This document shows, in pieces, positions 8,175 to 46,779 of a stretch of 64,000 nucleotides of DNA (the stretch's first letter is position 1; each line of letters begins with the position of its first letter). The stretch lies in IMG/VR virus record IMGVR_UViG_3300006098_000001. One strand, given 5' to 3'. Origin of the DNA: a virus. The position numbers and the translations under genes are program-made. The notes under the pieces were generated by a model. That model searched no databases. It saw only the letters and a program-made list of their open reading frames with translations, and had not been told where the DNA came from.

Positions 8175-8239
8175 TGGGACGGGTGGGATTCGAACCCACG
8201 ACATTGTGCACTTGTTCTACCAAACTGAACTACCGACCC
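8175..8239 (-). ncRNA. tRNA-like element lacking an anticodon arm (65 nt)
   Basis: GGGTCGG-TA-GTTC/AGTTTGGTA/GAAC, then only 14 nt (AAGTGCACAATGTC), then GTGGG/TTCGAAT/CCCAC-CCGTCCC-A. Acceptor has a T:T mismatch at pair 4. Confidence 0.35.
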
Positions 8240-8468
8240 TGCTTGCTTTAGTACATTCAGAAAGCATTCCAAAGATCTTATTTTAAGCTCACAAATTTAT
8301 TACACGGATAGGAGCTAGGTTCTACGTTTACCTGAATCGCCGTGGTTTCTATAAGAAATTTCTAACAACGAGGGAGCTACCCTCCGGCTACATATTAACG
8401 GTGGTGTAACCTTAGATGCCACGTTTCCATTTCAATTAAGAAGGTTGATAAAAACCTTTCATCACTGC

Positions 8469-27097: not shown

Positions 27098-28138
27098 TTA
27101 TTTTAGTACTTTGTGCTCCTTACCAGTACGATAAACTGTATTTTCTATTTCTGGACGTGAGTGAATTAACATTAATAATTGTTCTTTTGAGAGCTTATCA
27201 ATTTCTGTGTAATCATAATTGGTTGTTAGCATTGCTGCTCCAGTCATTGTTGGGTCTTGTTGTGAATGGATATATTTTTCTGTGTTCACGATACTCTCGT
27301 GATCTAGGAAATCTTTTACTAACATAATATCTTTAGTTTGGTAATAAAGAGTAGTGGCAGCTCCTGCACGCAATGAGTGTGGTGTTAATTGGTGATTTAT
27401 TTTCTTACTAAATTCTCTAAGCGCATTCTTTAATGTTTCATGCGAAAGAGAGTTAAATACGAATTCATTTTTATCTCCGTTAAACAATTTTTCTTTTAAC
27501 TTATTGTAATAACTCAATTCAAGATATTTAGTATTTAATTTTTTCCCTTTATCAATAACGTCTAATCGTGCAAAACGTGTTCCATCATGTGCAATGACGA
27601 ATTGAAAATCTTCCCATTTGATCGAAAATATCGCTGAAACACGGACGCCTGTTCTAAACATAAAATCTACTAATAACGCATATTTTATTCCTAACGTTTC
27701 ATCGGGATCATTACGATATCTTCTCTCTTTTAAAAATTCTTTTAATTGTTCTAACTCTTCACGAGAAATTGCCTCATGGTGCTTAACGTCATTTGTCTTT
27801 AATGATTTATTTGTTAAAACGTAATTATTTAAATCGTCAATATTTACACTTTTATAAATTCCCTCCTTCTTAATCATTTTCATAAGTGAACGAACTGCTA
27901 TCAAGTGACCTTTAATCGTTGAATCCTTAATGTCTTTTTCTCGTAAAGGTGCAATAAATTTATTTAATACATCACTGAACCGAAGATGATTTAGGTCATA
28001 TTCGCTAATCTCAACTGGCTCTTTATTAAACACCATTTTGCTGAAAAGCGTTACTGATGTTTTGTAATTGTGAATTGTATTAGCTGTAGCCAACGAATTA
28101 ATCCAAGTTAAGTATACTTCGTGCATTTCTCTTTCCAT
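27098..28138 (-). CDS. tyrosine recombinase (XerC/D/integrase family)
   Basis: FRTGVRVSAIFSIKWEDF (box I Arg); TPHSLRAGAAT; LDHESIVNTEKYIH (box II with catalytic Tyr). Start moved to MEREMH (GGAGG 7 nt upstream). Confidence 0.85.
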   Translation of the reverse strand: MEREMHEVYLTWINSLATANTIHNYKTSVTLFSKMVFNKEPVEISEYDLNHLRFSDVLNKFIAPLREKDIKDSTIKGHLIAVRSLMKMIKKEGIYKSVNIDDLNNYVLTNKSLKTNDVKHHEAISREELEQLKEFLKERRYRNDPDETLGIKYALLVDFMFRTGVRVSAIFSIKWEDFQFVIAHDGTRFARLDVIDKGKKLNTKYLELSYYNKLKEKLFNGDKNEFVFNSLSHETLKNALREFSKKINHQLTPHSLRAGAATTLYYQTKDIMLVKDFLDHESIVNTEKYIHSQQDPTMTGAAMLTTNYDYTEIDKLSKEQLLMLIHSRPEIENTVYRTGKEHKVLK

Positions 28139-28166
28139 TGTAATTCCTCCATATCTCCTATAACAC

Positions 28167-28182
28167 AATGCGGATTTTATAA
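28167..28182. repeat. left arm of a perfect 16-bp inverted repeat
   Basis: AATGCGGATTTTATAA; reverse complement at 28353-28368. Confidence 0.85.
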
Positions 28183-29710: not shown

Positions 29711-30058
29711 CTATATACAAAAGTCATTAATTACTTTACTAAGTTGTCTTTTAACCTTGTTGAAATCTTCTAGTCGTAATTTATCCATTGGTAAAGAACG
29801 CACTCTTTCACGAGAATAACAATGTATTTGTGTTGCATTTACTCGACCATATATATTTGCATAGCCCTGTAAATTAACGTAACCATTAAAATAAGTTCCA
29901 CCAGAAGTGATTGGTGCTACCATAAGATAATTTGTATTGCGATTATATCGATCGTTAGAAATAATTACCGCTGGATGAATACCTTCCATCTCAGTATCTA
30001 TAGCCGGACTAAAGTCTAAATAGATAATATCTCCCTGTTTATACTGTACTTTACTCAT
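29711..30058 (-). CDS. MazF/PemK-family endoribonuclease toxin
   Basis: GDIIYLDFSPAIDTEMEGIHPAVIISND...MVAPITSG. Start set at MSKVQ (GGAG 7 nt upstream). Confidence 0.8.
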   Translation of the reverse strand: MSKVQYKQGDIIYLDFSPAIDTEMEGIHPAVIISNDRYNRNTNYLMVAPITSGGTYFNGYVNLQGYANIYGRVNATQIHCYSRERVRSLPMDKLRLEDFNKVKRQLSKVINDFCI

Positions 30059-30108
30059 AATTTTCTCCATTCTACATTGTAAAAATGTCATTTTAACGAC
30101 TGCTTATT

Positions 30109-30252
30109 CTAAAAAGAGGATCGCCTAGAATGACGACCCCCTTTTTGGTTGATTTTATTTTTCTTTCCAATTTTTGGAGGAAAATTTCCTTCCCACCAAT
30201 CAATACAAATTGCTATTAAGAAACAAATTCCGATAATAATTAAATGTGTCAT
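30109..30252 (-). CDS. small membrane protein (47 aa)
   Basis: Own translation MTHLIIIGICFLIAICIDWWEGNFPPKIGKKNKINQKGGRHSRRSSF. Confidence 0.35.
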   Translation of the reverse strand: MTHLIIIGICFLIAICIDWWEGNFPPKIGKKNKINQKGGRHSRRSSF

Positions 30253-30260
30253 ACATTCTC

Positions 30261-30626
30261 CTATAATTTCATATATCCTCTAGAAACAGTTAGATCAGCT
30301 AATTTAATACTAAAATTATCAAAATAATCTCGATCATTAATACTTAAATCAGAATATGGAGTACTATCAAGCCCACCAAATGATAATTTTGAAATAATAT
30401 CTTTAGTAATTTCCACGCGTGTATTATTTTTATCCCAGCCAGCAGCAATATTCTCTAACCAATCATCATTTAATTCGTAAGCACGAACTCCACCTTCGGG
30501 AGCAATAACGCAAAGAAAATTTTTTCCAACATTACTATTCAAAATTTTCCCAGTTACGCCCATATAGCCACATAGGTTACTAAAAATCTCTACTGCATCA
30601 TCAATTAATGTTCTATGTTTCCACAT
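30261..30626 (-). CDS. hypothetical protein
   Basis: ORF track. Confidence 0.55.
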   Translation of the reverse strand: MWKHRTLIDDAVEIFSNLCGYMGVTGKILNSNVGKNFLCVIAPEGGVRAYELNDDWLENIAAGWDKNNTRVEITKDIISKLSFGGLDSTPYSDLSINDRDYFDNFSIKLADLTVSRGYMKL

Positions 30627-30895
30627 AATTTTCTCCTCCTACATAAATAAATCTGCAATTGCTACCAATAAGCACGTTAACAATAATCCGACCTTTACAA
30701 AATTAAAGGCAAAGCCTAATTCTTCACCGATCCGATTAATTAAATTCATAATATATTTCCTCCTAAATAATAAAGACTTCATTTGAATGCTGCCTAGTTT
30801 CCTCACTAAACATAATTCAAATGAAGTCTTTTAACTTCTATTAAAATTTCTTTTGCAAAAAACGTTTTATAAAGAAAGACCACCGTTGATATAAA

Positions 30896-31309
30896 TTAGT
30901 GGTGGTCTTGCTCTTTGATTCGACTTGAATGTTCTTTTAAGAACTTTGCTACTTTAAGCATAATTTCTTCGGTATCATCCTGTGTAGTAATACCAAGCAT
31001 TAAAGCTATACCCTCATCCTTAGTAACTTTGAGATGATAATCATTTTTCATTAAGAACAGCTTTGTAGCAACGTAAGCTGTTCTTTTATTTCCATCAGAA
31101 AATATATGCTTTTTTGTAATCTTCTGCATTACATACGCGGCTTTAACCCAAATTGTTGGGTATAATTCCGCACCAAAAACAACCATCTGTGGCTGTTCAA
31201 CTACTAAACTTAAACCTTCCGGGTATTGTAGCCCATAAACTCCTTCACCCGCTTTTCTAATCACTTGTTTATTTACAGCTAAAATTTCTTTTTCTGTTAA
31301 ATATTCCAT
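30896..31309 (-). CDS. doc: Doc (death-on-curing) Fic-fold toxin
   Basis: Fic/Doc motif HIFSDGNKRTAYV; 137 aa. Confidence 0.85.
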   Translation of the reverse strand: MEYLTEKEILAVNKQVIRKAGEGVYGLQYPEGLSLVVEQPQMVVFGAELYPTIWVKAAYVMQKITKKHIFSDGNKRTAYVATKLFLMKNDYHLKVTKDEGIALMLGITTQDDTEEIMLKVAKFLKEHSSRIKEQDHH

Positions 31310-31310
31310 A

Positions 31311-31556
31311 CTACAAATCCTTGAGAGCGTCTATTAAATCGGAGTCTTCATCGAAAATTTTATCTATCATTTTCTGTGTATCTTTACTTATACTTTCTTT
31401 CTTTTTAAATGTTATTACTCGACCATCGGAAGAAATATCTTTTTCATATTCGTCACCTGGTTGAGCGTGCATTTTTTCTTTGTCACTCTTGGTCAATCGT
31501 AAACCAAATGAATTTCCAGACTTAAAAAATTTTGAATTTTCATGAATTTCTTGCAT
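31311..31556 (-). CDS. AbrB/SpoVT-type antitoxin (Phd functional analogue)
   Basis: FKSGNSFGLRLTKSD swapped-hairpin motif. Lies directly upstream of doc with a 1-nt gap. Confidence 0.7.
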   Translation of the reverse strand: MQEIHENSKFFKSGNSFGLRLTKSDKEKMHAQPGDEYEKDISSDGRVITFKKKESISKDTQKMIDKIFDEDSDLIDALKDL

Positions 31557-31640
31557 AATATCACCTCGTAATTACATTATAGCATATTAGTGATTACAAT
31601 TTCTCCAATTCTTACTTTTGTAAAAGACGTGTTTTATAAG

Positions 31641-31958
31641 TTAAGCGATTTCTTCCCAAGTGGACCAATCATCGTAGTAATCAACAATTCCGTCAACGTA
31701 ATTGTCGATTTCCTTATCTTCACCGCCGTTTTCCCAATAATTATCAAATTGTTCTTCAGTCCAATTTAAGTCATACATATAATAATCAATAGCGGAGTCG
31801 TACACTACCCCTGATAAACCAGTGTGAGCGATAACAAGTTCTTTTTCTTCTTTACCACGTTGCATTGTCAAAATGGCCTCGCCATAAGTTGTTTCCACAA
31901 GACTCACTAATTCGGTTTTTGCATTATCTGTTAAAATTTTCATAATAATTTCCTCCAA
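31641..31958 (-). CDS. small acidic protein
   Basis: ORF track; Asp/Glu/Tyr/Trp-rich. Confidence 0.55.
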   Translation of the reverse strand: MEEIIMKILTDNAKTELVSLVETTYGEAILTMQRGKEEKELVIAHTGLSGVVYDSAIDYYMYDLNWTEEQFDNYWENGGEDKEIDNYVDGIVDYYDDWSTWEEIA

Positions 31959-35162: not shown

Positions 35163-35510
35163 TTAATAGTGATAATTTCTTTTATTCTTAACGTTGACCA
35201 ATTCAATACCATCAGCACCTTCACCTTGTTGACCCACAATTTTTTGTGATTTATCAGTAGGAACAACAACGAGGTTGTAGTCACCATTGCCTTGGTCGTG
35301 GTACTCAACCTCGAAATTCTGAGTTTTAATAGTGTCGTCATTCTTGAGCGATAAATTTTTCTGTTTGTGACCAATAGTCTTACTAATAATTTTTGCCTCA
35401 CTGTGCATTGTGATTGCGTTTGAGTTGGCTTCATGCTTTGACATAATCCAGCCGGTAACGCTTACGATAGTTGTTAGGGTTAATACGATTAGTGCAATAT
35501 TTTTCTTCAT
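35163..35510 (-). CDS. secreted/membrane-anchored protein
   Basis: MKKNIALIVLTLTTIVSVTGWIM signal/anchor. Confidence 0.6.
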   Translation of the reverse strand: MKKNIALIVLTLTTIVSVTGWIMSKHEANSNAITMHSEAKIISKTIGHKQKNLSLKNDDTIKTQNFEVEYHDQGNGDYNLVVVPTDKSQKIVGQQGEGADGIELVNVKNKRNYHY

Positions 35511-35550
35511 GGTTATTTATCCTCCGAGTGGTTGTATTGTGTGGTTGTGG

Positions 35551-35907
35551 TTAGTCTTCTAATTCTTCGATAGCATCATCAATCGCTTGACTTAATACAT
35601 AGCAACGCAAGGAAACATCAATTGATTCATAGCAATCATCAAGCCACCATTCAGCAGTTTTTTGACGGTCCATAAACCCTTCATCAATTGCTTCGCGGAT
35701 TAAGTCCTTGTTATCATCAACGTATTCCTTGGCTTTGTTGGCGTTGAAAGTATATGATCCTGAGCCATTACCAGTTACAGAATCTTCGATCCAAAGTTGT
35801 TCGTTGAGTTCTTCACGATCAACCTCGTTGACATTGATTTCGTTGTCCTTGATGAAGTCGATTACATCGTTCTTAACATTTTCAAAGTAGTCATATTGTT
35901 GTGTCAT
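35551..35907 (-). CDS. acidic protein (possible DNA mimic/anti-restriction type; speculative)
   Basis: 118 aa, strongly Asp/Glu-rich; first gene after a conserved promoter motif. Confidence 0.5.
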   Translation of the reverse strand: MTQQYDYFENVKNDVIDFIKDNEINVNEVDREELNEQLWIEDSVTGNGSGSYTFNANKAKEYVDDNKDLIREAIDEGFMDRQKTAEWWLDDCYESIDVSLRCYVLSQAIDDAIEELED

Positions 35908-35935
35908 GATATTTACCCCTCAATTAATATATTTT

Positions 35936-35955
35936 AGTATTTTTGTTGTGATTAA
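35936..35955 (-). promoter_or_regulatory. copy of conserved phage intergenic motif
   Basis: AGTATTTTTGTTGTGATTAA, 29 nt upstream of the ATG at 35907. Confidence 0.45.
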
Positions 35956-35970
35956 TAGTGTAAGATTACA

Positions 35971-36183
35971 TTAGTTTAGCAAGTTCGTCAATAGTACCCG
36001 TAGAAGTGGTAAGGTCACTGCAATAACAATAACTGTAATGAATACAGCTAAAATACTGTACTTCTTGAACCTGATTAGCCTTTCGCTATCTCGTTCTAAC
36101 TGCTTAATGTATTCAGGATCAACCAACTTGTAATCCTGTTCAGCGTATTTCTGTAGTTCCTTTTGTGACATCATAATTATCAA
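35971..36183 (-). CDS. small protein with C-terminal TM helix
   Basis: ORF track; ILAVFITVIVIAVTLPLL. Confidence 0.55.
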   Translation of the reverse strand: MIIMMSQKELQKYAEQDYKLVDPEYIKQLERDSERLIRFKKYSILAVFITVIVIAVTLPLLRVLLTNLLN

Positions 36184-36189
36184 AACCTT

Positions 36190-36700
36190 TCTAATTTGCT
36201 TCAGCGGTTATTATTAATCGCTTTATATAGAGTCTTATCGTGTTGATAAGGCTCTCTAAAAACAATTAATAGTGTCTTTTTCACTTTCACAGGCTTAAAC
36301 CAAGGAATATTAGCAAGTCCCTGCTGGTAGTATCACGGTGCCTTTATCTACTATTGATTAGGCGGTTGACGTGGAATCACCTACCCCTACCGTACCGGGT
36401 TATTTACCAACTTTTGATATTGCGGAGTTGTTCTCAGTTCTACTGAAAGATTGAACCGCCGTTATTTTGTTTTCAAAGTTCAGCATATGTTGGTTTGAAA
36501 GTGATTGAGTATGCTCTCGCTCACACTGTCCGCCACCTTAACTTTTAGCTTGAATACAGTTATGGCTTTATCCTGCCCTAGGTGATATATGGAATCCTAC
36601 ACCCTTGCGGTTTATCAAGTTATTATGTTAAGCCTGTTCAGCCCGTTGACTTTTGCGACTTGTTAACGTTTTTTGAATTGGTAACTTTCCAATTAGTTTG
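36190..36700 (-). ncRNA. candidate structured leader/ncRNA (about 500 nt, ORF-free)
   Basis: Downstream of four tandem consensus promoters. Long-range pair GGCGGTT (36361-36367) / AACCGCC (36455-36461) on the plus strand. Duplicated TGGAATC(A)CTACNCC at 36372 and 36591. Many hairpins. Confidence 0.25.
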
Positions 36701-36797
36701 AACAATTTTATATAACATCGTAAGTTATATAAGGATAACCTTTTATTTCTTAATCGCTTCAAGGCTTGCGATTGCCTGCTCCTTTATCGTGTCTTTA

Positions 36798-36826
36798 TTA
36801 TAACTTCCGATGTTATAATTGTCAAG
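36798..36826 (-). promoter_or_regulatory. consensus sigma70 promoter with embedded palindromic operator (P4)
   Basis: Minus strand TTGACA-17-TATAAT. Spacer carries TTATAAC-N7-GTTATAA (36799-36819). Confidence 0.7.
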
Positions 36827-36922
36827 ACTTAATTTTTTGAATTGTAGCGGTTGACCTTGAAGTCAAAGTTAGATACTCAAGTGAACTCACTTTCAATCCA
36901 TTTATTAAGTTTGTGCTTTTTA

Positions 36923-36952
36923 TTATAACTTCGTAAGTTATAAATTGTCAAG
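36923..36952 (-). promoter_or_regulatory. consensus sigma70 promoter with operator (P3)
   Basis: TTGACA-18-TATAAT; operator TTATAACTTCGTAAGTTATAA. Confidence 0.65.
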
Positions 36953-37038
36953 AAGTAAATTTGATTAATTTTTAATCACCTAGGCTAGTTCGATGACTGC
37001 TCTTTATTGTGATTGTCCTAATCAACTTTACGGCTTTA

Positions 37039-37067
37039 TTATAACTTCCGATGTTATAAATGTCAAT
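37039..37067 (-). promoter_or_regulatory. consensus sigma70 promoter with operator (P2)
   Basis: TTGACA-17-TATAAT; operator TTATAACTTCCGATGTTATAA. Confidence 0.7.
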
Positions 37068-37129
37068 ACCTTTTTCAAATTATTTTTGATACCTGGTATT
37101 TATTGCCGTTGTCCTTTTGACGATTCCAA

Positions 37130-37157
37130 TTATAACATCGCAAGTTATAAAGTCAAC
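37130..37157 (-). promoter_or_regulatory. sigma70 promoter with operator (P1)
   Basis: TTGACT-16-TATAAT; operator TTATAACATCGCAAGTTATAA. Confidence 0.65.
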
Positions 37158-37192
37158 TATTTTTTGTAAAAAAATAAGAGTAGTTATAATAA

Positions 37193-37423
37193 CTACTCTT
37201 GTAATTCTTTTAGGCGCTTATCTAATTCAATTTTAAACTCTTTCAAATCACTGATATAAGTATCTCTTATATCTATATTAGATTTTATTAATTGATATAA
37301 TCTTGTTTTAGATGATGGGCGAATAAAGCCCCCCGCCTCACTCTTACGCTTCCAATAGTAAGCTTTATCTGGATTAGCTTTTTCATAATTCTTTTTTGCT
37401 TGTTTTTGTGCTTCACTAACCAA
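37193..37423 (-). CDS. small basic protein (76 aa, TTG start); candidate regulator, paralog-like to 38701..38898
   Basis: AAGGAGGTG RBS. Shares ...K(K/R)Y...(R/Q)KKS.A..F...RLKEL architecture with the 65-aa protein. Confidence 0.6.
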   Translation of the reverse strand: MVSEAQKQAKKNYEKANPDKAYYWKRKSEAGGFIRPSSKTRLYQLIKSNIDIRDTYISDLKEFKIELDKRLKELQE

Positions 37424-37443
37424 GACTTCACCTCCTTTTTACT

Positions 37444-37472
37444 TTATAACATGGTAAGTTATAAGTATTATA
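37444..37472 (-). promoter_or_regulatory. promoter (-10 TATAAT with TG) plus sixth operator copy
   Basis: Minus strand TGGTATAAT, then TTATAACTTACCATGTTATAA between the -10 and the RBS. Confidence 0.6.
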
Positions 37473-37508
37473 CCATACTCAACAGAAATAAAACTACACA
37501 ATCAGTAA

Positions 37509-37537
37509 TTGACTATTACAATACTTAAGTTTAAAAT
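37509..37537 (+). promoter_or_regulatory. sigma70 promoter for the 32-aa peptide gene
   Basis: TTGACT-17-TAAAAT. Confidence 0.6.
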
Positions 37538-37569
37538 TGTTATATCTCCTTGAGTAAGGAGGTGACAAC

Positions 37570-37668
37570 ATGAAACATAATGAAAAAGAAAAGAAACAAC
37601 CCTATAAGGCTTTTTACTTTGAGTGTAGCCTAATAAAGTTATTTCTTAAAATCATCATTATAAAGTAG
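37570..37668 (+). CDS. 32-aa basic/hydrophobic peptide (type I toxin-like candidate)
   Basis: AAGGAGGTG RBS; MKHNEKEKKQPYKAFYFECSLIKLFLKIIIIK; followed by hairpin + T-run. Confidence 0.5.
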   Translation: MKHNEKEKKQPYKAFYFECSLIKLFLKIIIIK

Positions 37669-37766
37669 TGTAATCACTTCCCTGAGTTGTTGTGTGACGG
37701 CTCAACCCAGGGAGATTTTTATTACAATTACATTATATCACAATTTATTGTGGTATTATATATTTG

Positions 37767-37795
37767 TTGATATGATATTACTAGATTGTTATAAT
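37767..37795 (+). promoter_or_regulatory. sigma70 promoter reading antisense into the 31-aa peptide gene
   Basis: TTGATA-17-TATAAT. Confidence 0.55.
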
Positions 37796-37811
37796 ATAGA
37801 TACAAGAAAAC

Positions 37812-37848
37812 CCCTAAAGGTTGTTAACTTGTCCGTTAACCTTTAGGG
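37812..37848 (-). terminator. terminator of the 31-aa peptide gene
   Basis: 11-bp stem CCCTAAAGGTT/AACCTTTAGGG, followed on the minus strand by GTTTTCTT. Confidence 0.6.
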
Positions 37849-37862
37849 CGGTGAGTTATTCA

Positions 37863-37958
37863 CTACTTAATAATAAAGAATTTAAAGAATAATCTTAAAA
37901 GGCTGAACTCGCAATATACAACCTTAAAAGATTGTTCTTTTTTCTTTTTATTGTTCAT
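37863..37958 (-). CDS. 31-aa peptide, paralog of 37570..37668
   Basis: AAAGGGGGTGGG RBS; MNNKKKKEQSFKVVYCEFSLLRLFFKFFIIK. Confidence 0.5.
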   Translation of the reverse strand: MNNKKKKEQSFKVVYCEFSLLRLFFKFFIIK

Positions 37959-38345
37959 GTTCCCACCCCCTTTCCTTAAGGGGTTAAAATAATTTAAACA
38001 TCGTTATTTCTGAAAGTCAATAATTGAAAAAGAAAAAGCCAAAACGCAAAAGTAAAAAACGTTAAGGCTTAAAGGCTTAAAAGCTTACATATTGAGGGAA
38101 CGTGGCGCCGTTCCCTTTTTGTATAATTATCATATCATACTTACAACCCTAACAGAATAGAAAAATAACACCCCTTTATTTTTCTATATAAGGAAGAAAA
38201 AACATAATAAAAAAACGATAAAGAAAAAAATAAATATACATGTTGACAACATGAAGAATTGTGTTATTATAATATACGTAAGCTATTAATATAGTTTACA
38301 AGGCGACACACTAACAACAAATAATAAAGGTTTGAGGTGGTCAAA

Positions 38346-38486
38346 TTGTATTCTATATTGTTGCATGCTGCAACCTTGTTTAGTTTGGTAAGTGGTGGAA
38401 TTCTGGCGATAGTAACATCAATCGAAAAAGTTCTTATCATAAAAGAAAAAGCCCACAAGTCAGATAAGGACAAGGGGCAAAAATAA
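38346..38486 (+). CDS. 46-aa single-TM peptide with Lys-rich tail (TTG start)
   Basis: GAGGTG RBS; (M)YSILLHAATLFSLVSGGILAIVTSIEKVLIIKEKAHKSDKDKGQK; own promoter TTGACA at 38243 and its own terminator. Confidence 0.5.
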   Translation: MYSILLHAATLFSLVSGGILAIVTSIEKVLIIKEKAHKSDKDKGQK

Positions 38487-38505
38487 CTTACATTTATGAA
38501 TATTT

Positions 38506-38533
38506 GGGAAGTGTTGCGACCACTTCCCTTTTT
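38506..38533 (+). terminator. intrinsic terminator
   Basis: GGGAAGTG-(7 nt)-CACTTCCC + TTTTT. Confidence 0.7.
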
Positions 38534-38573
38534 CTACAGTGTTATAATAACATAATAAAAAGGGTGTGACAAT

Positions 38574-38681
38574 ATGAAATGGATCATATTAATTGGTCTA
38601 TATCTTTTCGGGTTTGTTTGTCTAACGGTTGCGATCAAAAAGGCGAGAAAAATATATAATACTTTAAAGCATAATAAATAA
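38574..38681 (+). CDS. 35-aa single-TM peptide
   Basis: AAAGGGTG RBS; MKWIILIGLYLFGFVCLTVAIKKARKIYNTLKHNK. Confidence 0.45.
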   Translation: MKWIILIGLYLFGFVCLTVAIKKARKIYNTLKHNK

Positions 38682-38700
38682 TTAAAATAAATATAGAATT

Positions 38701-38898
38701 ATGGAAAACAAACAAAACAAAACAAGTAAAGCAAAATTACAAGCAAATAAACGCTATCAAGAAAGACATAAAAAAGAAGTTTATCGCAATCAGAAAAAAT
38801 CTAGGGCGAAAAATTTTCTATTGAATGATGCAAGGATTGACGAACTAGAATTTTTTTCTGAATTAATTTCTGAAAGATTGAAAGAATTAAAAAAATAA
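38701..38898 (+). CDS. small basic protein (65 aa); paralog-like to 37193..37423
   Basis: ORF track. Followed by the hairpin GGGTAATGCG/CGTGTTGCCC + TTTTG. Confidence 0.6.
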   Translation: MENKQNKTSKAKLQANKRYQERHKKEVYRNQKKSRAKNFLLNDARIDELEFFSELISERLKELKK

Positions 38899-38929
38899 TA
38901 ATAGTAATTAGGGTAATGCGTTAGTGTTT

Positions 38930-39600
38930 AGCGTGTTGCCCTTTTGCATTGTGGTTATATGATAACGCTTACATAGTGATGTATAGCAGTGTATAGGTAT
39001 TACAGTGATATGTATATAGTAGCGTGCATAGTGTTGTTATGATAGTGATATATAGTAGTGTTATTTGTGTCTGTGTATAGATGTATATAGGTTAGTGAGT
39101 GAGTAGTGTTACATAGTGATATGCATAGTGAAGTAATATGATAGTGTAGTGATGTATATAATGTATTGAGTTAGTAACTGATTTACGTTTGTAGATATTA
39201 GATTGTCAAGGCTGAGAGTGAGTGCGGTGTATGGGGTGTAGTGTGATTAGTATGTTTGATATATGATAATGTTTTCATATGTTATTGTAATGATATAGTA
39301 AGTGAGTAGTATATTGATATGTATGTATTGAGTGAGTAAGTAGGCGGATTGCGTGAGTGTGTTTGGTTAGTTAGTTATTATATTAGGGGTGTGTATTAAG
39401 TTACGTTTGTAAATTTTAAATTGTCAAGAGTGAATTTTTATGGTCTGGGTTTATTATTGTGTTGGTTGTGATATGTATTAGTTAGATTTTATTTATTAGG
39501 GGTGTGGGTGAATTATTGGGCGGTGTTAGGTTAGGTAAACGGTTATTATATTAATTTATTGGGTGTTTGGTGTGGTGTGTGAGTATGTGTGAACATTTGT
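38930..39600. repeat. C-depleted (G/T/A-only) repeat-rich arm
   Basis: About 25 C in 660 nt by hand count. Many (C/G)ATAGTGA(T/A) units. Two copies of TTACGTTTGTA-N8-ATTGTCAAG (39183-39210, 39401-39428). Confidence 0.7.
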
Positions 39601-40085
39601 TCATAGCAGATTATAATATATGAAATTTTGTTCATATGAATTAGTGAAAAGTACCCTACCCAGCCCACCAAAATAAATATATTAAGTTTACAACTGTAGC
39701 CCCTTATAAATAAAATTACCCCTTATCAAAAGATAGGGGCTTTCTTTTTCGATATTAAAATATTCTTGTAACCGTTTACACATAACAACAACTATTATTG
39801 TGTCTTAAATTTGCAAATAGGCGGGGGTTATTTTACTCAAAACGCCTTAATTTTTAGGGAAAATTTTAGGGTAGTTGCTTCACTCACACACCACAAAATT
39901 TTTTCCATTCACCCCATTTCTCGCACCCTATCACCCCTCAAATATCCCAATAAATTAATACCAAATTTAACCTTTTCAAAACTATGAAAATATCTTTCAT
40001 AATCTTTCAACACAATATCCCTACCCATTCCTCTCACCCTTTCCCATTCAACTATAAATAAAGAGCCTAGGAATTACCCTAGACT

Positions 40086-40412: not shown

Positions 40413-41650
40413 TGTCGTTTCCCCATTCTTATATTAAACGTATGTTCCCTTGTTATAATACACGAACGAATGTTCTTTATCAAGTATTATCAGTAAATAG
40501 ATACATATATCGCTTTATAGTACATTTTTATATTTATGTTCTTAATGCCATATACCTAATTATTCTGATTTATGAAAATATTGCGCACCCAAAATAGCCA
40601 TTTTTTGAAACAAAGAAAATTGCCTCTCGCTTTCATAACAATTATTTTCATAAAATTACTCAAAACTACCCTATTTTGCACCCAATAAAATCTTCGAAAC
40701 TCCCTATGAGGAATTCCTCAATTCACAAACTTTCGACTTCTACACAAACAACATTACTGAATTTAATTATACTTTGTGAATTTTTCTTCACTAATTCAAG
40801 AATTCAATTCTAAATAACTAAAATATGAACAAAAATTGTTATGAAAACATCGTTTTATGCATACCTAACTTATTTACGAAATAATCTGTCTTATTGTACA
40901 AAACTAAAAATTCATCATTCTTAATATTTCGCACCCTACTACTCATGTAACTAACCCTATCGAAACTCCCTATTTTTCATTTTGATATTTTTACTCAAAT
41001 CACTGAATTTTTAACCAAAAAAAATGAACTAATACCAAATCCTATTTAATAGGATCTAGTAGTACTTTTTTATAATTATTATTCACTTGAGACATTTATT
41101 AGTACATCTTCGATAATACAAGGGGTTTCAAACATCTAATTCCAGAAAATTTCACAAACTTAAAAAGGGTGCGGGGTATTTTTACTCTAATAACCTATAA
41201 TTATATGTTTCGTATTGGTTCATTATTTCCACTCAGACTATTTTTCATAATTCCGCCGCCATCTATCCATTGTAATAGGAAGAAAACCTCTATTTTCTAT
41301 CACTGCTTTTATTGTCGCTTGTGAAGTCATCAAAAAATGCTGTTTCATTTTTATGTAACTATTCTCGCCTTCTTTTTCTCTTTAAACACAGCCAAACACC
41401 AACGTAGAATGGAGTTAACGGGTCATAAATCAAAATTACATTAATTTATCTAAATCAGCTCTTAGCCCCATTATTCATTGTTCGTTTTGATTATTTATGA
41501 GCAATAATTATGTAGGTCAATTATTAAAACAGCTATTCCACAAGTTCCTTTAAATAAAAAACAGCGACAGTAAATACCACCGCTGAAATAATTACGGATT
41601 ACTTACATAACCACTTACTAATCTTTTTAATTAAATGTTTAACGTGCTTA

Positions 41651-41983: not shown

Positions 41984-42373
41984 TTACGATAACATGTCTA
42001 AATTAGGCCTGTTTTTCAATTTAGAACTCAAAGAACTGTCATCAGTTTTAGAGTCATTATCGTTTTTCTTATTTCCAATTCTTGTCCTTAATTTGCGCTT
42101 GGGCTTTTCTTCAACATCGACATCATCATTCTCTTCTACCGACGTCTTTTCTTCTAGTTTTGAAACTGAGTTAATAGTACCTAACTGTCCATCTAAGCTT
42201 GCACTATCTAAAATAGCTTGGATAAGATCACCAGTTCCATATTTCCTAACTACCATTTCTAATGCCCTAATAGCAGCCGGAGAAAATTGTGACTGGTTTT
42301 TAGACCATTCTGCAACTTTTGAATCCTCGGGAATAAGGATAGTTTTTCTAATCATTTTCGCCATAAAAATCAC
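41984..42373 (-). CDS. ParR-like centromere-binding adaptor (candidate)
   Basis: Directly downstream of parM. N-terminal RHH-like KMIRKTILIPEDSKVAEW; charged disordered C-terminus. Confidence 0.45.
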   Translation of the reverse strand: MIFMAKMIRKTILIPEDSKVAEWSKNQSQFSPAAIRALEMVVRKYGTGDLIQAILDSASLDGQLGTINSVSKLEEKTSVEENDDVDVEEKPKRKLRTRIGNKKNDNDSKTDDSSLSSKLKNRPNLDMLS

Positions 42374-42378
42374 ACTCT

Positions 42379-43590
42379 CTATAAGGCTTCAACAATTACT
42401 TGTAATCCTAATTCATTTAAATATTGTGCATATTCCTTATCAATCCAAATTACTGGAACATCATATCCACCACTGAAGCTCTTAAGTTTTTCGTTCAATA
42501 CTTCGCGAAGATTACTCTCATCTAGCATTGGAATGGAACCACCACCATATACGTAAACAAGTTCAGTATCCTTAGCGATACGCATTGTTTGACTAACTGT
42601 ATCGATAATCTTGTCAGCTAATGGTTCTAATTGGTCGTAAACAACTTGACGTACTTTATCTTGGCGAGCTCGACGCAATGGACTGACCTTTTCAGATAAG
42701 AAACTCTGTAATTGTGAACGTTCCTCAAAATTCATTTGTTGATCTTGAAGAACACGCACTGCATCTTGTAATACATTTCCGTATCCTTGTGGTAACGAAG
42801 CTGATGCTGCTGGATTAGCTTTACCGTTAATAATTGCTACTACATCAGTAGTCCCTTCTCCGATATCAATTCCAAGTACATTTCGTGAATTAATAAGGTC
42901 GTCAGCTCCAACTTCATCCTTCATTTCTGAATAGTTCTTATCAAAGTCTTCCTTAATTTTATCTGTTAATCCATCATAATCGGAGGAAATAAGCATTTGG
43001 GCTGTTTCACCTTCTAATGCAACATATACTTTATTAAATTCAATGGTTACATTAATTGGATCCTTAAAGTTATGGAAAGTTACTGTATGCGTACTACCCA
43101 TGTAACGTTCTTTGTAACGATCTTTTGCATTATTAACCTTACCTTCTGAAATAGGTAACGCAGTCGCCATATTAACTTTTACCTTTAGAGTCTCCTTTAA
43201 GTCTTGTCCAGCTTCATATGCTTCTTTTACTTTCTTCCCAGCTATCAAACTTAAAGTAAGAATAATTGCTAAATCTGTTTCTGATTTACCAGTAAAGTCA
43301 TTAACATCAAAAGCCCTCATAGATAGACCACTGTCGATCGCAGCATTACCAATTAAAAATCTTCCAGAGGTTTTTACTGCATTACTTGACACACTAACGT
43401 CCATGTTATTAAGAAAGTTCTTCATATATGTATCTTGATCTTGTTTAGAATCAAATTCCATAGGAGCTTGTACATCTTGTGGACGTTCTGCTGCTATAAC
43501 TGACGGAAACTTAATATTTTCACCATCAACATTTGCTTTTACAGAACCATATCCCAAATCATTTGCAACCTTCATAATCTTCTCAACCAT
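42379..43590 (-). CDS. parM: ParM/Alp-family actin-like segregation ATPase
   Basis: Phosphate-1 NDLGYGSVK, phosphate-2 LGIDIGEGTTDV, adenosine-like VYGGGS; 403 aa. Confidence 0.8.
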   Translation of the reverse strand: MVEKIMKVANDLGYGSVKANVDGENIKFPSVIAAERPQDVQAPMEFDSKQDQDTYMKNFLNNMDVSVSSNAVKTSGRFLIGNAAIDSGLSMRAFDVNDFTGKSETDLAIILTLSLIAGKKVKEAYEAGQDLKETLKVKVNMATALPISEGKVNNAKDRYKERYMGSTHTVTFHNFKDPINVTIEFNKVYVALEGETAQMLISSDYDGLTDKIKEDFDKNYSEMKDEVGADDLINSRNVLGIDIGEGTTDVVAIINGKANPAASASLPQGYGNVLQDAVRVLQDQQMNFEERSQLQSFLSEKVSPLRRARQDKVRQVVYDQLEPLADKIIDTVSQTMRIAKDTELVYVYGGGSIPMLDESNLREVLNEKLKSFSGGYDVPVIWIDKEYAQYLNELGLQVIVEAL

Positions 43591-43811
43591 TATTTCTACC
43601 TCCGATTTATAACATAATCATATTATATCATACTTAATACAAATTTAAGTGTAACTAAATAAGATATTTTATTTTTTTATATGATATAATCTTCTTTTTG
43701 ATTACCACAATGTTAATAATACTATGTATTTAACATAATGTAAATAACATTTAACACTTTTAGAAAGTTTTATGAAGGCAAATAAAAAACGCTTTGGTAG
43801 CGTTTCATAGT

Positions 43812-44141
43812 TTACTTAAGGCTTTTAGACATGTAGTCCTTTTGCTCTAATATATTATACATTCTATCAAATCGAGTTTTTTCACTCTCGTTTAATTCAG
43901 CAATTTCACTCTCAATCATATGTTCGACAACTGCCTTTGCATTTTTTGCAACACCAAGATTAATTAAGGCAGAAACCTTATTACGAATATGATTGTCAAC
44001 ACGTATATTAACTGGAAAGGACACTTCTTTATTGTCTGTTAAGATGTCTTCTTTTTTTGTTATCTCCTTGAATGATGGCTTTGCATCTACCTCACTATTT
44101 TTCAAGGAATTCTTTGATTTAGCTGGCTTTGATATTGCCAT
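43812..44141 (-). CDS. small RHH-type partition protein (ParG/omega-like)
   Basis: 109 aa immediately downstream of parA (ATGA overlap). FPVNIRVDNHIRNKVSALINLG ribbon-helix-helix-like. Confidence 0.5.
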   Translation of the reverse strand: MAISKPAKSKNSLKNSEVDAKPSFKEITKKEDILTDNKEVSFPVNIRVDNHIRNKVSALINLGVAKNAKAVVEHMIESEIAELNESEKTRFDRMYNILEQKDYMSKSLK

Positions 44142-44953
44142 TATTCATGTGCCTCCTTAATACGCCCTAAAAGTTCAACTGCAACTTCTTTATAAACATT
44201 GAGAGTTTTTTTGTCCCATGCATCTCTATCTTCTGTAATACCTGTGACGTCATAATTTTTAGCTCTTTCCATAATCCTAATATGACTATTAAAAACGTCA
44301 GCTCCCCATTCTTCTCTTGATTTTTCCAAAATCAATTGATCGACTTTAGCATTGTCTTTAGATAAAACAGGAACAACTGCTAATACTTCTGTGTCAGCAA
44401 TATACTCATCAATTATGTCGTCTTGAATATATTCAATAAAGTCTTTTGCATCGTCAAAAGCTCTTTGTTGAGTTTGAAGAACAATTACTAATTCGTCACA
44501 AGCATACAAAGCTGTATCATTTTGTAAACTCAACGTAGGACTAACATCTATAAAAATGTAATCATACTTGTCCTTTATATCACTTAGCTTATTTTTAAAG
44601 GATGCGACACGCTCCTTTTCATTAAGATAAGCATGTTCAAGATATCTAGGATATAGATAAAAATCACTAGCAGTTGGGACAAGATAAAGATTATCCATTA
44701 CCTGAACTGTAACATTATCCAAACTTTCATTATCTTTAATAGCGCTCATTAGCGTCTTGTTAAATGATAAAATCTCATCAGACTTTTGACTCTTTGTCTT
44801 TACCATCAATGTTGTCAAATCTGCCTGTGGATCAAAATCAATTAATAATACCTTATTCCCCATTTTTGCCAAACTATACGCTACCAATGCAGTGGTCGTT
44901 GTCTTACCAACACCACCCTTTTGATTACACATTGAAATTACTTTTGCACTCAT
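44141..44953 (-). CDS. parA: ParA/Soj-family partition ATPase (type Ib size)
   Basis: Deviant Walker A NQKGGVGKTTT; 270 aa. Confidence 0.85.
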   Translation of the reverse strand: MSAKVISMCNQKGGVGKTTTTALVAYSLAKMGNKVLLIDFDPQADLTTLMVKTKSQKSDEILSFNKTLMSAIKDNESLDNVTVQVMDNLYLVPTASDFYLYPRYLEHAYLNEKERVASFKNKLSDIKDKYDYIFIDVSPTLSLQNDTALYACDELVIVLQTQQRAFDDAKDFIEYIQDDIIDEYIADTEVLAVVPVLSKDNAKVDQLILEKSREEWGADVFNSHIRIMERAKNYDVTGITEDRDAWDKKTLNVYKEVAVELLGRIKEAHE

Positions 44954-45129
44954 TTCAATTCCACCTCACCTATTTATTAAGTACTATAATATCAAACCTT
45001 TCGGATTGTGTTAAGTGTAATATGTAATGTATATTATATGAATCGCATAAAACTACACAAAAGTGTTAAATGTGATTTATATAATGCATAATGTGAAATA
45101 TATTATTAATTATAAATTATGTATAAAAC

Positions 45130-45177
45130 ATATCCCATTATATATAATGTTTTTAATACTATACATAATGGGATATA
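45130..45177. repeat. 12-bp inverted repeat upstream of parA (parS/operator candidate)
   Basis: ATATCCCATTAT ... ATAATGGGATAT. Nearby TGTTAA(A/G)TGT(A/G)AT repeats at about 45009 and 45063. Confidence 0.5.
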
Positions 45178-45533
45178 CACGACTTATTAATATCTATTGA
45201 CTTTTTAGGTTTTTGATGGGATTATCTACTTGTAACAACAAACTATCCAAATGTGTTACAGGTGAGAGTTATTTATATGATTGGCTCACACAAAACAATT
45301 TTATATCTGCCCGAAAATAAGTCACTATCAAAGTATATGTTCGTGAGATAGTGTTATTTAAGCGTGATTTAATATGGTTCACGCAAAATATATTGAACAT
45401 TATTGTTATATTGCTATTTAAATTCGGGTATGGTATCTTATATTACATACCACAATAAGTGGTATTTTAGGCGAACCAAGTTTGAGAAGGATTAGGCACC
45501 CTTTGATAACTATTACAACTGAATAAAGAGTAT

Positions 45534-45600
45534 AAAAAAAGACCCAACCATTAGGCATTTGGTTAGATCGACAAAAAAAACTTTTATTCATATATTGTAT
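45534..45600 (-). ncRNA. candidate countertranscript (ctRNA) opposite the repA promoter/leader
   Basis: Minus-strand promoter TTGATT (45634-29), 16 nt spacer, TATTAT (45612-07). Hairpin AACCAAATGCCTAATGGTT + T7 ends near 45534. Confidence 0.4.
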
Positions 45601-45693
45601 GTATTTATAATACCATACTTTGTCGATTAATCAATAGGTTGAGCTTGTTTTCTTATACTCATTTTCAAATAAATGAATTAAGGAGAAACTACA

Positions 45694-46779
45694 ATGAATA
45701 ACCAAAAAGCATTTCTAGGTATCAACCTAGATTTACTCGAAAATCCAAAATATAAGAATTTAGACTCCCGTGCAATGATGTTGTACGCTCTTTACGCTGA
45801 CCGCTATTCTGCATCAATGAATAACGCTCGTTTAGGGAATACTGCATTCGTTGATGACATGGGAGTCTTTATTCGTTTTACTAATGAATTAGCCGCTAAG
45901 GTACTTCACACAACAGCCAAAATGATTAGCAAATTTCGTAAGCAATTAGAATCAGAGAATTTAATTAAGATTGTTCGTGAAGGACTTAAGGGTTACAAAA
46001 TCTATGTTTACCCAGTTCAACAAACACCAAATAATGTTGAGCTTCTTTTGCCATGGAAAAATCATACCATCACTGTACAAAAGACTATTTCTGACTGGAC
46101 TATTGCATCCAAGCTTGAATTCAGTAAAACTCTTAAATTATCTTCTCAAACCATTGATATGACTGTGAAGTCCCAACGGGAATACACGTGCAACCAAAAA
46201 GGGAATACTAGTTTATCTCACTCTAGTTTATCTCATGTATTTTTAAATAATAATGGATTGGATGATAACGCGCGTACGCGTAAGGAAAATGAAATTCAAC
46301 CCAATCAATCAAACAAGAATCCATATCACTCTTTACCAGAAAAGATAAAGAATTCATTTGGTGATGTATTTGGTTTTATTACAAAGCCTATGGCTATTGA
46401 ACTACATTCTCTAATCAGTCAAGCTAACGAAGACATGGTTAACTACGTAATTACAAGCAGCAAAGGTCATAAGGTTACTAATGCTATCGCATATATCAAA
46501 GCCGCTATTACCAATGCTATTAAACGAGGGGATAAGTGCGCCCAAGATATGATTGACTTTTATAACAACAACGTAAAAACTACGTTCTCTAGTTACAAGA
46601 AAAAGCCAGCAAAGCGTTTTATGTCTGAAGAAGAAGTAAATGCTATGGTTGCAAAAGACGAAGAAGAAATGCGCCAAAACAATCCGAAGCTTTACACTCG
46701 TATACAGGAAATTAAGCGTCGCAGCGCAGAAAAGGCACAGAATCGTCCAGAAATTCCAATCTATAAGCTTGAGTTTTAA
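45694..46779 (+). CDS. RepA_N-family plasmid replication initiator with DnaD-like C-terminal region
   Basis: N-terminus FLGINLDLLENPKYKNLDSRAMMLYALYADRYSASMNN...FIRFTNELAAKVLHTTAKMISKFRKQLESENLI matches the RepA_N pattern. Confidence 0.75.
   Translation: MNNQKAFLGINLDLLENPKYKNLDSRAMMLYALYADRYSASMNNARLGNTAFVDDMGVFIRFTNELAAKVLHTTAKMISKFRKQLESENLIKIVREGLKGYKIYVYPVQQTPNNVELLLPWKNHTITVQKTISDWTIASKLEFSKTLKLSSQTIDMTVKSQREYTCNQKGNTSLSHSSLSHVFLNNNGLDDNARTRKENEIQPNQSNKNPYHSLPEKIKNSFGDVFGFITKPMAIELHSLISQANEDMVNYVITSSKGHKVTNAIAYIKAAITNAIKRGDKCAQDMIDFYNNNVKTTFSSYKKKPAKRFMSEEEVNAMVAKDEEEMRQNNPKLYTRIQEIKRRSAEKAQNRPEIPIYKLEF

Follow-up and report, generated by a model that had tools for sequence, protein, structure and literature searches.

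Tandem operator-bearing promoters and a candidate small helical repressor in an SPbeta-like phage-plasmid of Limosilactobacillus reuteri

The promoter-operator array

The DNA analyzed here is a 64-kb stretch (the window) from IMG/VR virus record IMGVR_UViG_3300006098_000001, and it is part of a ~127-kb SPbeta-like phage-plasmid of Limosilactobacillus reuteri. At the locus of interest, four minus-strand promoters (P1 to P4), each holding a palindromic operator (O1 to O4), stand in tandem between the gene for a small basic protein of 76 amino acids (aa) and a 529-nt leader, and they head a leftward early operon, a run of ~25 kb of minus-strand genes (Table 1). Two further copies of the palindrome lie outside these promoters, one (O5) between P4 and the leader and the other (O6) in front of the 76-aa gene.

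The original prediction, made from the letters of the sequence, described four near-consensus promoters with palindromes and no genes between them, and this description holds. There are five exact copies of the palindrome TTATAAC-N7-GTTATAA in the window (36798, 36923, 37039, 37130, and 37444), compared with a mean of 0.09 matches in dinucleotide shuffles of the window, none of which (0/100) reaches five. Its 19-bp core, TATAAC-N7-GTTATA, has six exact matches, all between 36711 and 37463, the sixth being O5, and there are no other such sites in the window with up to one mismatch. The promoters have the -35 (TTGACA) and -10 (TATAAT) hexamers of sigma-70/sigma-A promoters at a distance of 16 to 18 bp; three of them match at 12 of 12 positions and one at 11. 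P2 to P4 are the only 12/12 consensus sigma-70 promoters in the 64 kb (shuffles contain a mean of 0.10, and 1 of 300 reaches three). On the transcribed strand, a single open reading frame (ORF) of at least 30 aa touches the array (36628-36762, with a TTG start 16 nt from AAGGAG), and it is not kept in relatives.

Other details of the prediction needed revision. The palindromes had been placed in the promoter spacers, which is partly correct, but at each array promoter the promoter-proximal arm belongs to the -10, with the hexamer falling inside it (GTTATAAT). The promoters are not 105 to 125 bp apart; their start-to-start distances are 91, 116, and 125 bp. The inter-promoter segments, which had been called related to each other, are so only weakly (31 nt at 74%). 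Operator spacings of 88, 125, 116, and 91 bp correspond to 8.4, 11.9, 11.0, and 8.7 helical turns and thus keep no consistent phase, which leaves phased cooperative looping unsupported. An intrinsic-terminator-like hairpin separates the 76-aa gene from the array and is the only minus-strand terminator-like site in 35500-39500; relatives likewise have a hairpin and T run 3' of the small gene.

What had been taken for a degenerate fifth promoter at 36712-36731 is an operator (O5), and in every relative a counterpart at the same position is of that element's operator class, so that it switches with the other sites; it has no -35 or -10 and is promoterless. O6 had been recognized between the -10 and the ribosome binding site (RBS) of the 76-aa gene, and it belongs to the same set. 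The extended -10 of this gene has a conserved equivalent (TGTTATAAT) in relatives, in which the arrangement with O6 is also kept at the sequence level. The candidate repressor gene is therefore both adjacent to the array and equipped with the operator in its own promoter. In a complete relative of 128,846 bp (NZ_CP102426.1), the operator of that element's class has six copies in 128.8 kb, every one of them located in 31063-31796, and the only three 12/12 promoters are all within the array. The confinement of the operators to one cluster in this relative suggests that the factor that binds them has a single target locus.

Table 1. Positions of the array, of the genes around it, and of the plasmid maintenance genes in the window
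Feature	Position	Strand	Remarks
Promoter of the 76-aa gene	37467..37475	-	Extended -10 TGgTATAAT, weak -35; read from sequence
Operator O6	37445..37463	none	TATAAC-ATGGTAA-GTTATA; 3 nt past the -10 of the 76-aa gene, upstream of its RBS
76-aa small basic protein	37193..37423	-	TTG start, strong RBS (AAAGGAGGTGA); from the ORF list; candidate immunity repressor
Terminator-like hairpin	37176..37200	-	Intrinsic type, 11-bp stem and T run; between the 76-aa gene and the array
Promoter P1	37129..37156	-	TTGACT-16-TATAAT, TG-extended, 11/12; holds O1 (37131-37149)
Promoter P2	37038..37066	-	TTGACA-17-TATAAT, 12/12; holds O2 (37040-37058)
Promoter P3	36922..36951	-	TTGACA-18-TATAAT, 12/12; holds O3 (36924-36942)
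Promoter P4	36797..36825	-	TTGACA-17-TATAAT, 12/12; holds O4 (36799-36817)
Operator O5	36711..36729	none	Promoterless; about 70-90 bp downstream of the P4 -10
Leader	36184..36710	-	ORF-free, 529 nt from the anchor CAAACTAATTGG to the first start codon; candidate structured RNA
First ORF of the early operon	35971..36183	-	70 aa (68 aa from ATG), hydrophobic C terminus; kept in all relatives, served as anchor
Plasmid maintenance block	41984-46779		Inside the phage genome
Alp7A/ParM-like actin	42379-43590	-	With ~126-aa partner
ParA	44141-44953	-	With DUF5388 partner
CATAATG(T/G)GA(A/T)AT-type repeats	45018-45200		Upstream of parA
RepA_N initiator	45694-46779	+	

Operator classes and the protein that follows them

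About 20 distinct homologous regions were gathered with the conserved first ORF, the leader anchor, and the small protein as probes. The word-indexed protein search yielded close relatives only (at least 58% identical), and diverged homologs were reached through synteny and the DNA anchor. All share one layout, in which the small gene, with its own promoter and palindrome, is followed by a terminator and by tandem TTGACA/TATAAT promoters, each with a palindrome; downstream of these come a promoterless palindrome ~30 bp before the anchor CAAACTAATTGGAAAGTTACC, the leader, and the 70-aa ORF. Across relatives, promoter positions and the -35 and -10 hexamers are kept and the sequence of the palindrome is changed, which gives at least six operator classes. 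The six classes in Table 2 are defined by half-site and spacing; an earlier division into seven or eight types was too fine (A has the same half-site and spacing as F, and B the same as H). The outer TATA is fixed because one arm of the palindrome doubles as the -10.

Table 2. Operator classes by half-site and spacing
Operator	Elements
TATAAC-N7-GTTATA	Window, L008, L009, L018, L034, L036, L038
TATAAC-N6-GTTATA	L010, L020, L021, L027
TATAA(A/G)C-N4-G(C/T)TTATA	L011, L022, L024, L026
TATAG(A/C/T)C-TTAA-G(N)CTATA	L012/L017, L013, L025, L028
TATAGG(C/T)-N4-(G/A)CCTATA	L015
TATAG(C/T)G-TTCA-C(G/A)CTATA	L019

Within each element, the sites of the array, the promoterless site, and the small gene's own site agree in half-site and spacing, with the exception of L019 (class G). 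The central spacer can differ between own and array sites (TATTTA versus CACACA in L010), so recognition seems to rest on the half-sites and the distance between them. The number of promoters is one in L011, three in L012, L018, L019, and L036, four in the window, L010, L013, L015, L022, and L034, and five in L020; the order of the inter-promoter modules is altered in L013. Such variation in number and order is the pattern expected of recombination between repeated promoter-operator units, by which copies may be gained, lost, and reshuffled.

The change in operator is matched by a change in the 76-aa protein, specifically in its N-terminal 34 residues, which track the classes. Their identity is at least 86% within an operator type and at most 65% between types, a split that overstates how tightly identity maps onto class (see below). 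The C-terminal half does not follow operator class: class C and class D proteins are up to 83% identical there, while two class D proteins with identical N termini and operators share only 76% of this half. Since the C-terminal coding DNA sits between the N-terminal codons and the array, inheritance of gene and array as a linked block is a poor explanation for the match. Two more features of the protein support this match. Residues 9 to 15 in helix 1 read A-K-x-(N/R)-Y-(E/Q)-(K/Q/A) in all seven lineages with the TATAAC half-site and differ in each of the other four classes. Three residues are inserted before the last helix in five of five protein lineages with 19-bp operators and in none of those with 18-bp operators, a pattern that may reflect a single evolutionary event. 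When the helix-1 and insertion rules were applied blind to protein P0012, they predicted TATAAC-N7-GTTATA, and both the own site and the array sites of that element match.

The 76-aa protein matches a single PHROG, phrog_2277, a family of unknown function, and has no Pfam domain at E values up to 0.1. A profile search of 1.84 billion representative proteins yielded 44 clusters at E values up to 0.001, nearly all of them 60 to 90 aa long. AlphaFold2 predicts, at a predicted local distance difference test (pLDDT) score of 95, four helices (residues 4-16, 18-34, 41-48, and 50-75) and no strand. This model has no fold neighbors in PDB or BFVD, and profile and sequence searches of PDB gave nothing meaningful. 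No helix-turn-helix (HTH) domain of the XRE/Cro-C1 kind appears in the Pfam, PDB, and BFVD searches, and the strand-free model does not have the N-terminal beta strand and two helices of a ribbon-helix-helix protein. The modeled basic N-terminal helical hairpin, together with the long C-terminal helix, would fit a dimer that reads a palindrome.

Other candidates for the binding factor follow the operators less well. The 65-aa paralog of the 76-aa protein, which had been named as a second possible binder, is nearly invariant among elements with different operators and was rejected; presumably it recognizes a different, conserved site. An integrase-like protein (27098-28168), which retains R, HxxR, and the C-terminal Y, is 97.5 to 98.6% identical across three operator classes and was likewise rejected as the specificity determinant. 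A host factor is unlikely because operator class varies among elements of one host species. The annotation of NZ_CP102426.1 contains no CI-type repressor, and its sole HTH regulator adjoins a RelE/ParE toxin gene. The expectation of operator-bearing promoters under an element-encoded repressor is thus borne out at the level of sequence comparison, with the 76-aa protein as the best candidate binder of the palindrome and its N-terminal two helices as the proposed specificity determinant.

The proposed immunity switch and its alternatives

We consider it probable that this locus is a heteroimmunity switch, in which a small helical protein of a new family represses its own gene and also, by covering the -10, one to five tandem early promoters; an immunity role, one of several originally suggested, fits the evidence. 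From the sequence anatomy, the restriction of the sites to a single cluster, and the concerted variation of operator and protein, all of which are seen directly, we infer transcription from the array and its repression by a bound dimer. During carriage as a plasmid, the 76-aa protein would occupy all six sites and silence the early operon: dimers on O1 to O4 would conceal the -10 hexamers from RNA polymerase, O5 is proposed to serve as a roadblock or auxiliary site, and O6 is proposed to mediate negative autoregulation of the 76-aa gene. In a cell without repressor, P1 to P4 would fire leftwards at full strength, their transcripts would run through the leader into the long early operon, and the early genes would be made at once. 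Build-up of repressor would then turn the operon off, and the element would settle as a plasmid. Matched classes of repressor N terminus and operator would constitute heteroimmunity groups, and promoter number would drift between one and five by recombination between the repeated units. Two points were absent from the original prediction: the array feeds a long early operon by way of a structured leader of 529 nt, and the element as a whole is a phage-plasmid.

The leader is probably a structured 5' leader and a candidate new structured RNA. On the transcribed strand, no ORF of at least 30 aa lies wholly inside it. In relatives it is 529 to 552 nt long, with invariant blocks alternating with blocks that are replaced wholesale. 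RNAalifold predicts 98 to 105 pairs from the leader alignment. Compensatory changes occur in 20 of 98 pairs, compared with 4.0 ± 1.6 in column shuffles (0/500 reach the observed number) and with 4 to 9 compensated pairs when partners were slid by 1 to 3 columns, although L014 and L021, both mosaic sequences, supply most of this signal and the alignment tested is the one that yielded the structure. The minimum free energy (MFE) z-score of the single sequence is -2.06. Rfam searches with the leader and the inter-promoter segments gave no relevant match, either at the gathering threshold or at E values up to 10, and the leader contains no terminator-like site.

Several observations weigh against the 76-aa protein as the immunity repressor. 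It has no recognizable DNA-binding domain in the Pfam, PDB, BFVD, and PDB sequence searches, and its structure is a monomer model only. Its gene is adjacent to the array, and classes C, D, E, and G each rest on a single N-terminal lineage, which leaves about five independent co-changes. The identity split given above is looser than its two bounds imply because the N termini of types A and F are just 53 to 58% identical, yet the two types have the same half-site and spacing, and because P0010 and P0011 (class A) have diverged N termini and were left out of the identity table. The own site of class G is a poor match to its array. In the distant members L029 and L040, the small gene lies directly upstream of a promoter whose palindrome recurs before the next RBS, but the palindrome upstream of the gene differs from that of the downstream promoter. 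Unlike the divergent CI and Cro genes, the 76-aa gene is co-directional with and upstream of its target operon; the protein could be an early shut-off factor rather than a maintenance repressor, and no inducer or antirepressor has been identified. Some of these points would be expected if a different protein, encoded elsewhere on the element or acting in a complex with another factor, bound the operators and the 76-aa gene were merely a regulated target, its product being, e.g., an early shut-off factor, antirepressor, or adaptor in an immunity cassette. The absence of a known fold, the poor class G site, and the unlike upstream and downstream palindromes of distant homologs all favor such a binder, as does the fact that the window holds only part of the ~127-kb element; co-inheritance is also expected of a gene that adjoins the array. 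We nevertheless regard a different binder as unlikely, since the N terminus tracks class and the C-terminal coding DNA that intervenes does not, the blind prediction for P0012 came true, the integrase-like protein and the 65-aa paralog are invariant with class, and the annotation of the complete relative offers no plausible regulator besides the toxin-antitoxin HTH protein.

Two other explanations concern what the array is for. Its main product might be a noncoding RNA, either the ~530- to 600-nt structured leader or processed short inter-promoter RNAs, with the downstream genes secondary; such an RNA might be an anti-defense decoy, a replication primer, or a processive antitermination element. 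The leader is ORF-free, conserved, and constant in length, with the 20 compensated pairs described above; small hairpins after P4 and at the anchor have compensatory changes in L019 and L021; and the inter-promoter modules are conserved and reshuffled as units. However, no terminator-like site lies between the promoters or at the leader end, which argues against the discrete short RNAs that had been suggested; the RBS of the first ORF comes directly after the last leader hairpins; Rfam has no matching family; and the mosaic origin of most compensatory changes, in an alignment that also supplied the structure, counts here as well. We think a noncoding RNA as the main product is quite improbable, and it would be compatible with the immunity switch rather than opposed to it. 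A bolder combination of the two, which we hold to be unlikely, would make the array an immunity-gated battery of consensus promoters from which a ~530-nt structured noncoding RNA of an undescribed class, with swappable domains and constant length, is made earliest and in the greatest amount; this RNA would act at cell entry independently of the downstream genes (for example, in anti-defense, replication priming, or processive antitermination of the 25-kb early operon). The repressor would then be a new minimal DNA-binding fold, with its first helix setting the half-site and the 3-residue insertion setting the spacing. Least credible, and in our judgment very improbable, is a plasmid maintenance site, i.e., a centromere or a bank of operators that titrates a regulator for copy number or incompatibility. 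Arrays of repeated protein-binding sites are typical of centromeres (parC and parS), the element, which is a plasmid, carries ParA/DUF5388 and Alp7A-like systems, and negative autoregulation with several sites per copy would tie occupancy by the repressor to copy number. Yet the array does not stand beside a partition operon, as centromere repeats do: it is 5 to 8 kb from both, and each has its own local repeats and adaptor gene. Moreover, all sites of the array form part of consensus promoters that point towards the early operon, the copy number is one to five, with a single promoter in the apparently intact NZ_CP065541.1 (132.6 kb), and the sequence diversifies like an immunity determinant. 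The centromere-like role that had been proposed for the array is therefore rejected as its main function.

The logic of the locus is that of a temperate-phage immunity region, and its protein and layout differ from the known ones. Lambda CI/Cro (OR/OL), CI/MOR of lactococcal phage TP901-1, Rro of r1t, and the system of Lactobacillus phage A2 use palindromic operators of ~17 to 21 bp on early promoters. The array resembles these lambdoid and lactic acid bacterial systems in its multiple operators over early promoters (six 19-bp palindromes, four of them over the spacer and -10, comparable to the repeated dyad operators of CI-type systems), in its adjacent and seemingly autoregulated repressor gene, and in its apparent heteroimmune types, with at least six classes in which operator and repressor change together. 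In contrast to those systems, the candidate repressor has 76 aa, is all-helical, and has neither an HTH/XRE domain nor a fold neighbor; its gene is not divergent but precedes the controlled promoters and runs in their direction; operator and -10 are fused in each consensus promoter, in a unit repeated one to five times; and no cro-like partner was identified here.

Promoter batteries, small plasmid repressors, and repressor sites without promoters are known in other systems. Promoters A1, A2, and A3 of T7 and the early promoters of T5 are strong, operator-free promoters for host polymerase that are not repressed, and both phages are virulent. As in T7 and T5, where such a battery yields a high level of early transcription immediately upon entry, several very strong promoters stand head to tail without genes and open the early region, but in the array no copy is without a repressor site, and the element is a temperate one carried as a plasmid. 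KorA/KorB of RK2, the ArdK/StbA-type regulators of IncW and IncN plasmids, and omega of pSM19035 control the overshoot of expression upon entry, act on several dispersed operons, and have HTH or ribbon-helix-helix folds. The locus shares with KorA/ArdK-type circuits a small, apparently autoregulated repressor with operators in strong promoters for establishment or anti-restriction genes (the second gene of the early operon in relatives is ArdA), and the same burst of expression in a naive cell followed by shutdown would be expected; it differs in having one target cluster and in the predicted fold without a beta strand. The stoperators of mycobacteriophage L5 are asymmetric 13-bp sites with ~30 copies across the genome. 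O5 is like them a promoterless repressor site downstream of the starts and could block elongating polymerase, but it is one palindromic site of the same type as the promoter operators.

The closest phages by chassis are SPbeta and phi3T, with which the element shares an SPbeta-like terminase and a large genome. Their master repressor MrpR (YopR, SroF) silences early promoters through repeated SPBRE/Phi3TRE boxes (PMC10516654). SroF/MrpR has a tyrosine-recombinase fold without catalysis and binds as a monomer to a non-palindromic box of 24 to 26 bp, and SPBRE boxes occur at about ten promoters scattered across the genome (PMC10516654; bioRxiv 10.1101/2025.11.27.690993). The present system instead uses a short palindrome, whose copies all fall within a single cluster of 750 bp in the window and likewise in the complete relative. 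The MrpR/SPBRE analogy was rejected on these grounds and because the integrase-like protein keeps its R, HxxR, and Y and is invariant with class; neither a recombinase fold without catalysis nor a long, non-palindromic, dispersed box of 15 to 26 bp describes this system.

L. reuteri is in wide use as a probiotic and serves as a model symbiont of the gut. The analysis assigns replicons of 50 to 138 kb from this species, annotated as plasmids only, to an SPbeta-like phage-plasmid family, and it pinpoints the locus that probably decides between the quiet state of the element and its early program. If the proposed switch is correct, the array and its relatives would supply compact, mutually orthogonal repressor/operator pairs in perfect promoters (at least six classes), usable as switches for lactic acid bacteria; the phrog_2277 family, with its 44 clusters among 1.8 billion representative proteins, would gain a function; and operator spacing and half-site recognition would provide a testable case of co-evolution with a very small protein. 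For RNA biology, the structured leader offers a lead of its own, and this RNA and the repressor fold are the parts likeliest to give something new.

The element and its neighboring genes

Phage genes and genes for replication and partition reside on the same element, which identifies it as an SPbeta-like phage-plasmid. Two contigs of the element measure 126,918 bp. Its terminase is 41 to 45% identical to those of SPbeta-group Bacillus phages and of one Lysinibacillus phage, and PHROG matches in the window include a portal protein, a DnaB-like helicase, a RecD/Dda-like helicase, and a clamp-like protein. RepA_N, ParA with DUF5388, and an ALP_N/Alp7A-like actin with a downstream 126-aa gene are on the same contigs. 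The annotation of NZ_CP102426.1 likewise lists terminase, tape measure protein, holin, and tail specificity protein together with replication and partition genes. At the DNA level, the region matches only L. reuteri records filed as plasmids, of 51 to 138 kb; it has no match in the phage collection (1.7 kb searched in distant mode and 11.5 kb in near mode), and tblastn of the 65-aa protein against phages found none. Strains with such elements include ATCC 53608 (with p53608_1), FN041, and YLR001. The early operon encodes small early proteins, Fic, PemK, two recombinase-like proteins, and replication helicases. The genes for the Fic-domain protein and the PemK/MazF-family toxin, both within the array-controlled operon, are at 29711-31309 (minus strand), and the early operon of NZ_CP102426.1 additionally has the RelE/ParE toxin gene beside the HTH regulator gene.

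Upstream of the 76-aa gene, two related genes of 31 to 32 aa lie at 37570-37668 (plus strand; MKHNEKEKKQPYKAFYFECSLIKLFLKIIIIK) and 37863-37958 (minus strand; MNNKKKKEQSFKVVYCEFSLLRLFFKFFIIK) in a 92-nt inverted repeat that is 72% complementary. Both have a strong RBS. The former and the 76-aa gene diverge in transcription, and downstream of the former comes a hairpin with a T run. A Pfam scan of the peptide from 37570-37668 gave no match; the two peptides might be small membrane or toxin-like peptides. The 65-aa paralog is encoded at 38701-38898 (plus strand), is 34% identical to the 76-aa protein, has the same PHROG, and is missing the middle segment. Directly downstream of it and its terminator is a G/T-rich stretch of 650 bp (38950-39600, plus strand; 24 C in 651 nt) with degenerate GTATAG/TAGTGA-type repeats, and the equivalent regions in L009, L012, L018, and L021 are microsatellite-like (GTATGTATAG... 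or its complement). This stretch could be an iteron, centromere, or hypervariable region, and the 65-aa protein may have its target here. LexA (Cheo) boxes with up to two mismatches number 17 in the window compared with 13.4 expected, which is not significant. Sites of the form GAAC-N4-GTTC, similar to LexA/Cheo boxes, are present at 39590-39603 and 40463-40476, the second directly after a TGTTATAAT extended -10 on the plus strand; not being enriched over chance, these two sites are only a lead for the wiring of induction.

Elsewhere in the window, 8175-11935 (minus strand) contains a transfer-messenger RNA (tmRNA) gene (8570-8947; tag ANNHRVTALAA; Rfam score of 75 bits) and six tRNA genes, three of which are called by ARAGORN (Ile-TAT, Trp-CCA, and Arg-TCT). 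Mobile elements are found at the control region of several relatives: an IS3 element interrupts the array after the first promoter in L028 (NC_021503.1, pLRI01, 53 kb), an IS30 element is directly upstream of the small gene in L019 (NZ_CP139476.1, a 98-kb plasmid), and an IS200/IS605 element with TnpB is near the control region of L011 (NZ_CP065541.1, a 132-kb plasmid). Several of the "plasmids" of 51 to 98 kb look like decayed derivatives that retain the switch. In a metagenome-assembled genome (L003; GCA_948646745.1, contig CAPKNZ010000004.1, 8526-12769), the 65-aa gene, the 76-aa gene, and the first promoters of the array form a module that is doubled in tandem, as either a true duplication via the repeated promoters or an assembly artifact. 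Homologs of the integrase-like protein with 31 to 44% identity (H40 to H45) are encoded on 108- to 138-kb plasmids of Limosilactobacillus mucosae, Ligilactobacillus salivarius (pMP1046B), Vagococcus fluvialis, and Bacillus wiedmannii, so similar phage-plasmids may be widespread and misfiled. The related replicon of Ligilactobacillus salivarius, pMP1046B, has been published as a candidate chromid (PMC4165912).

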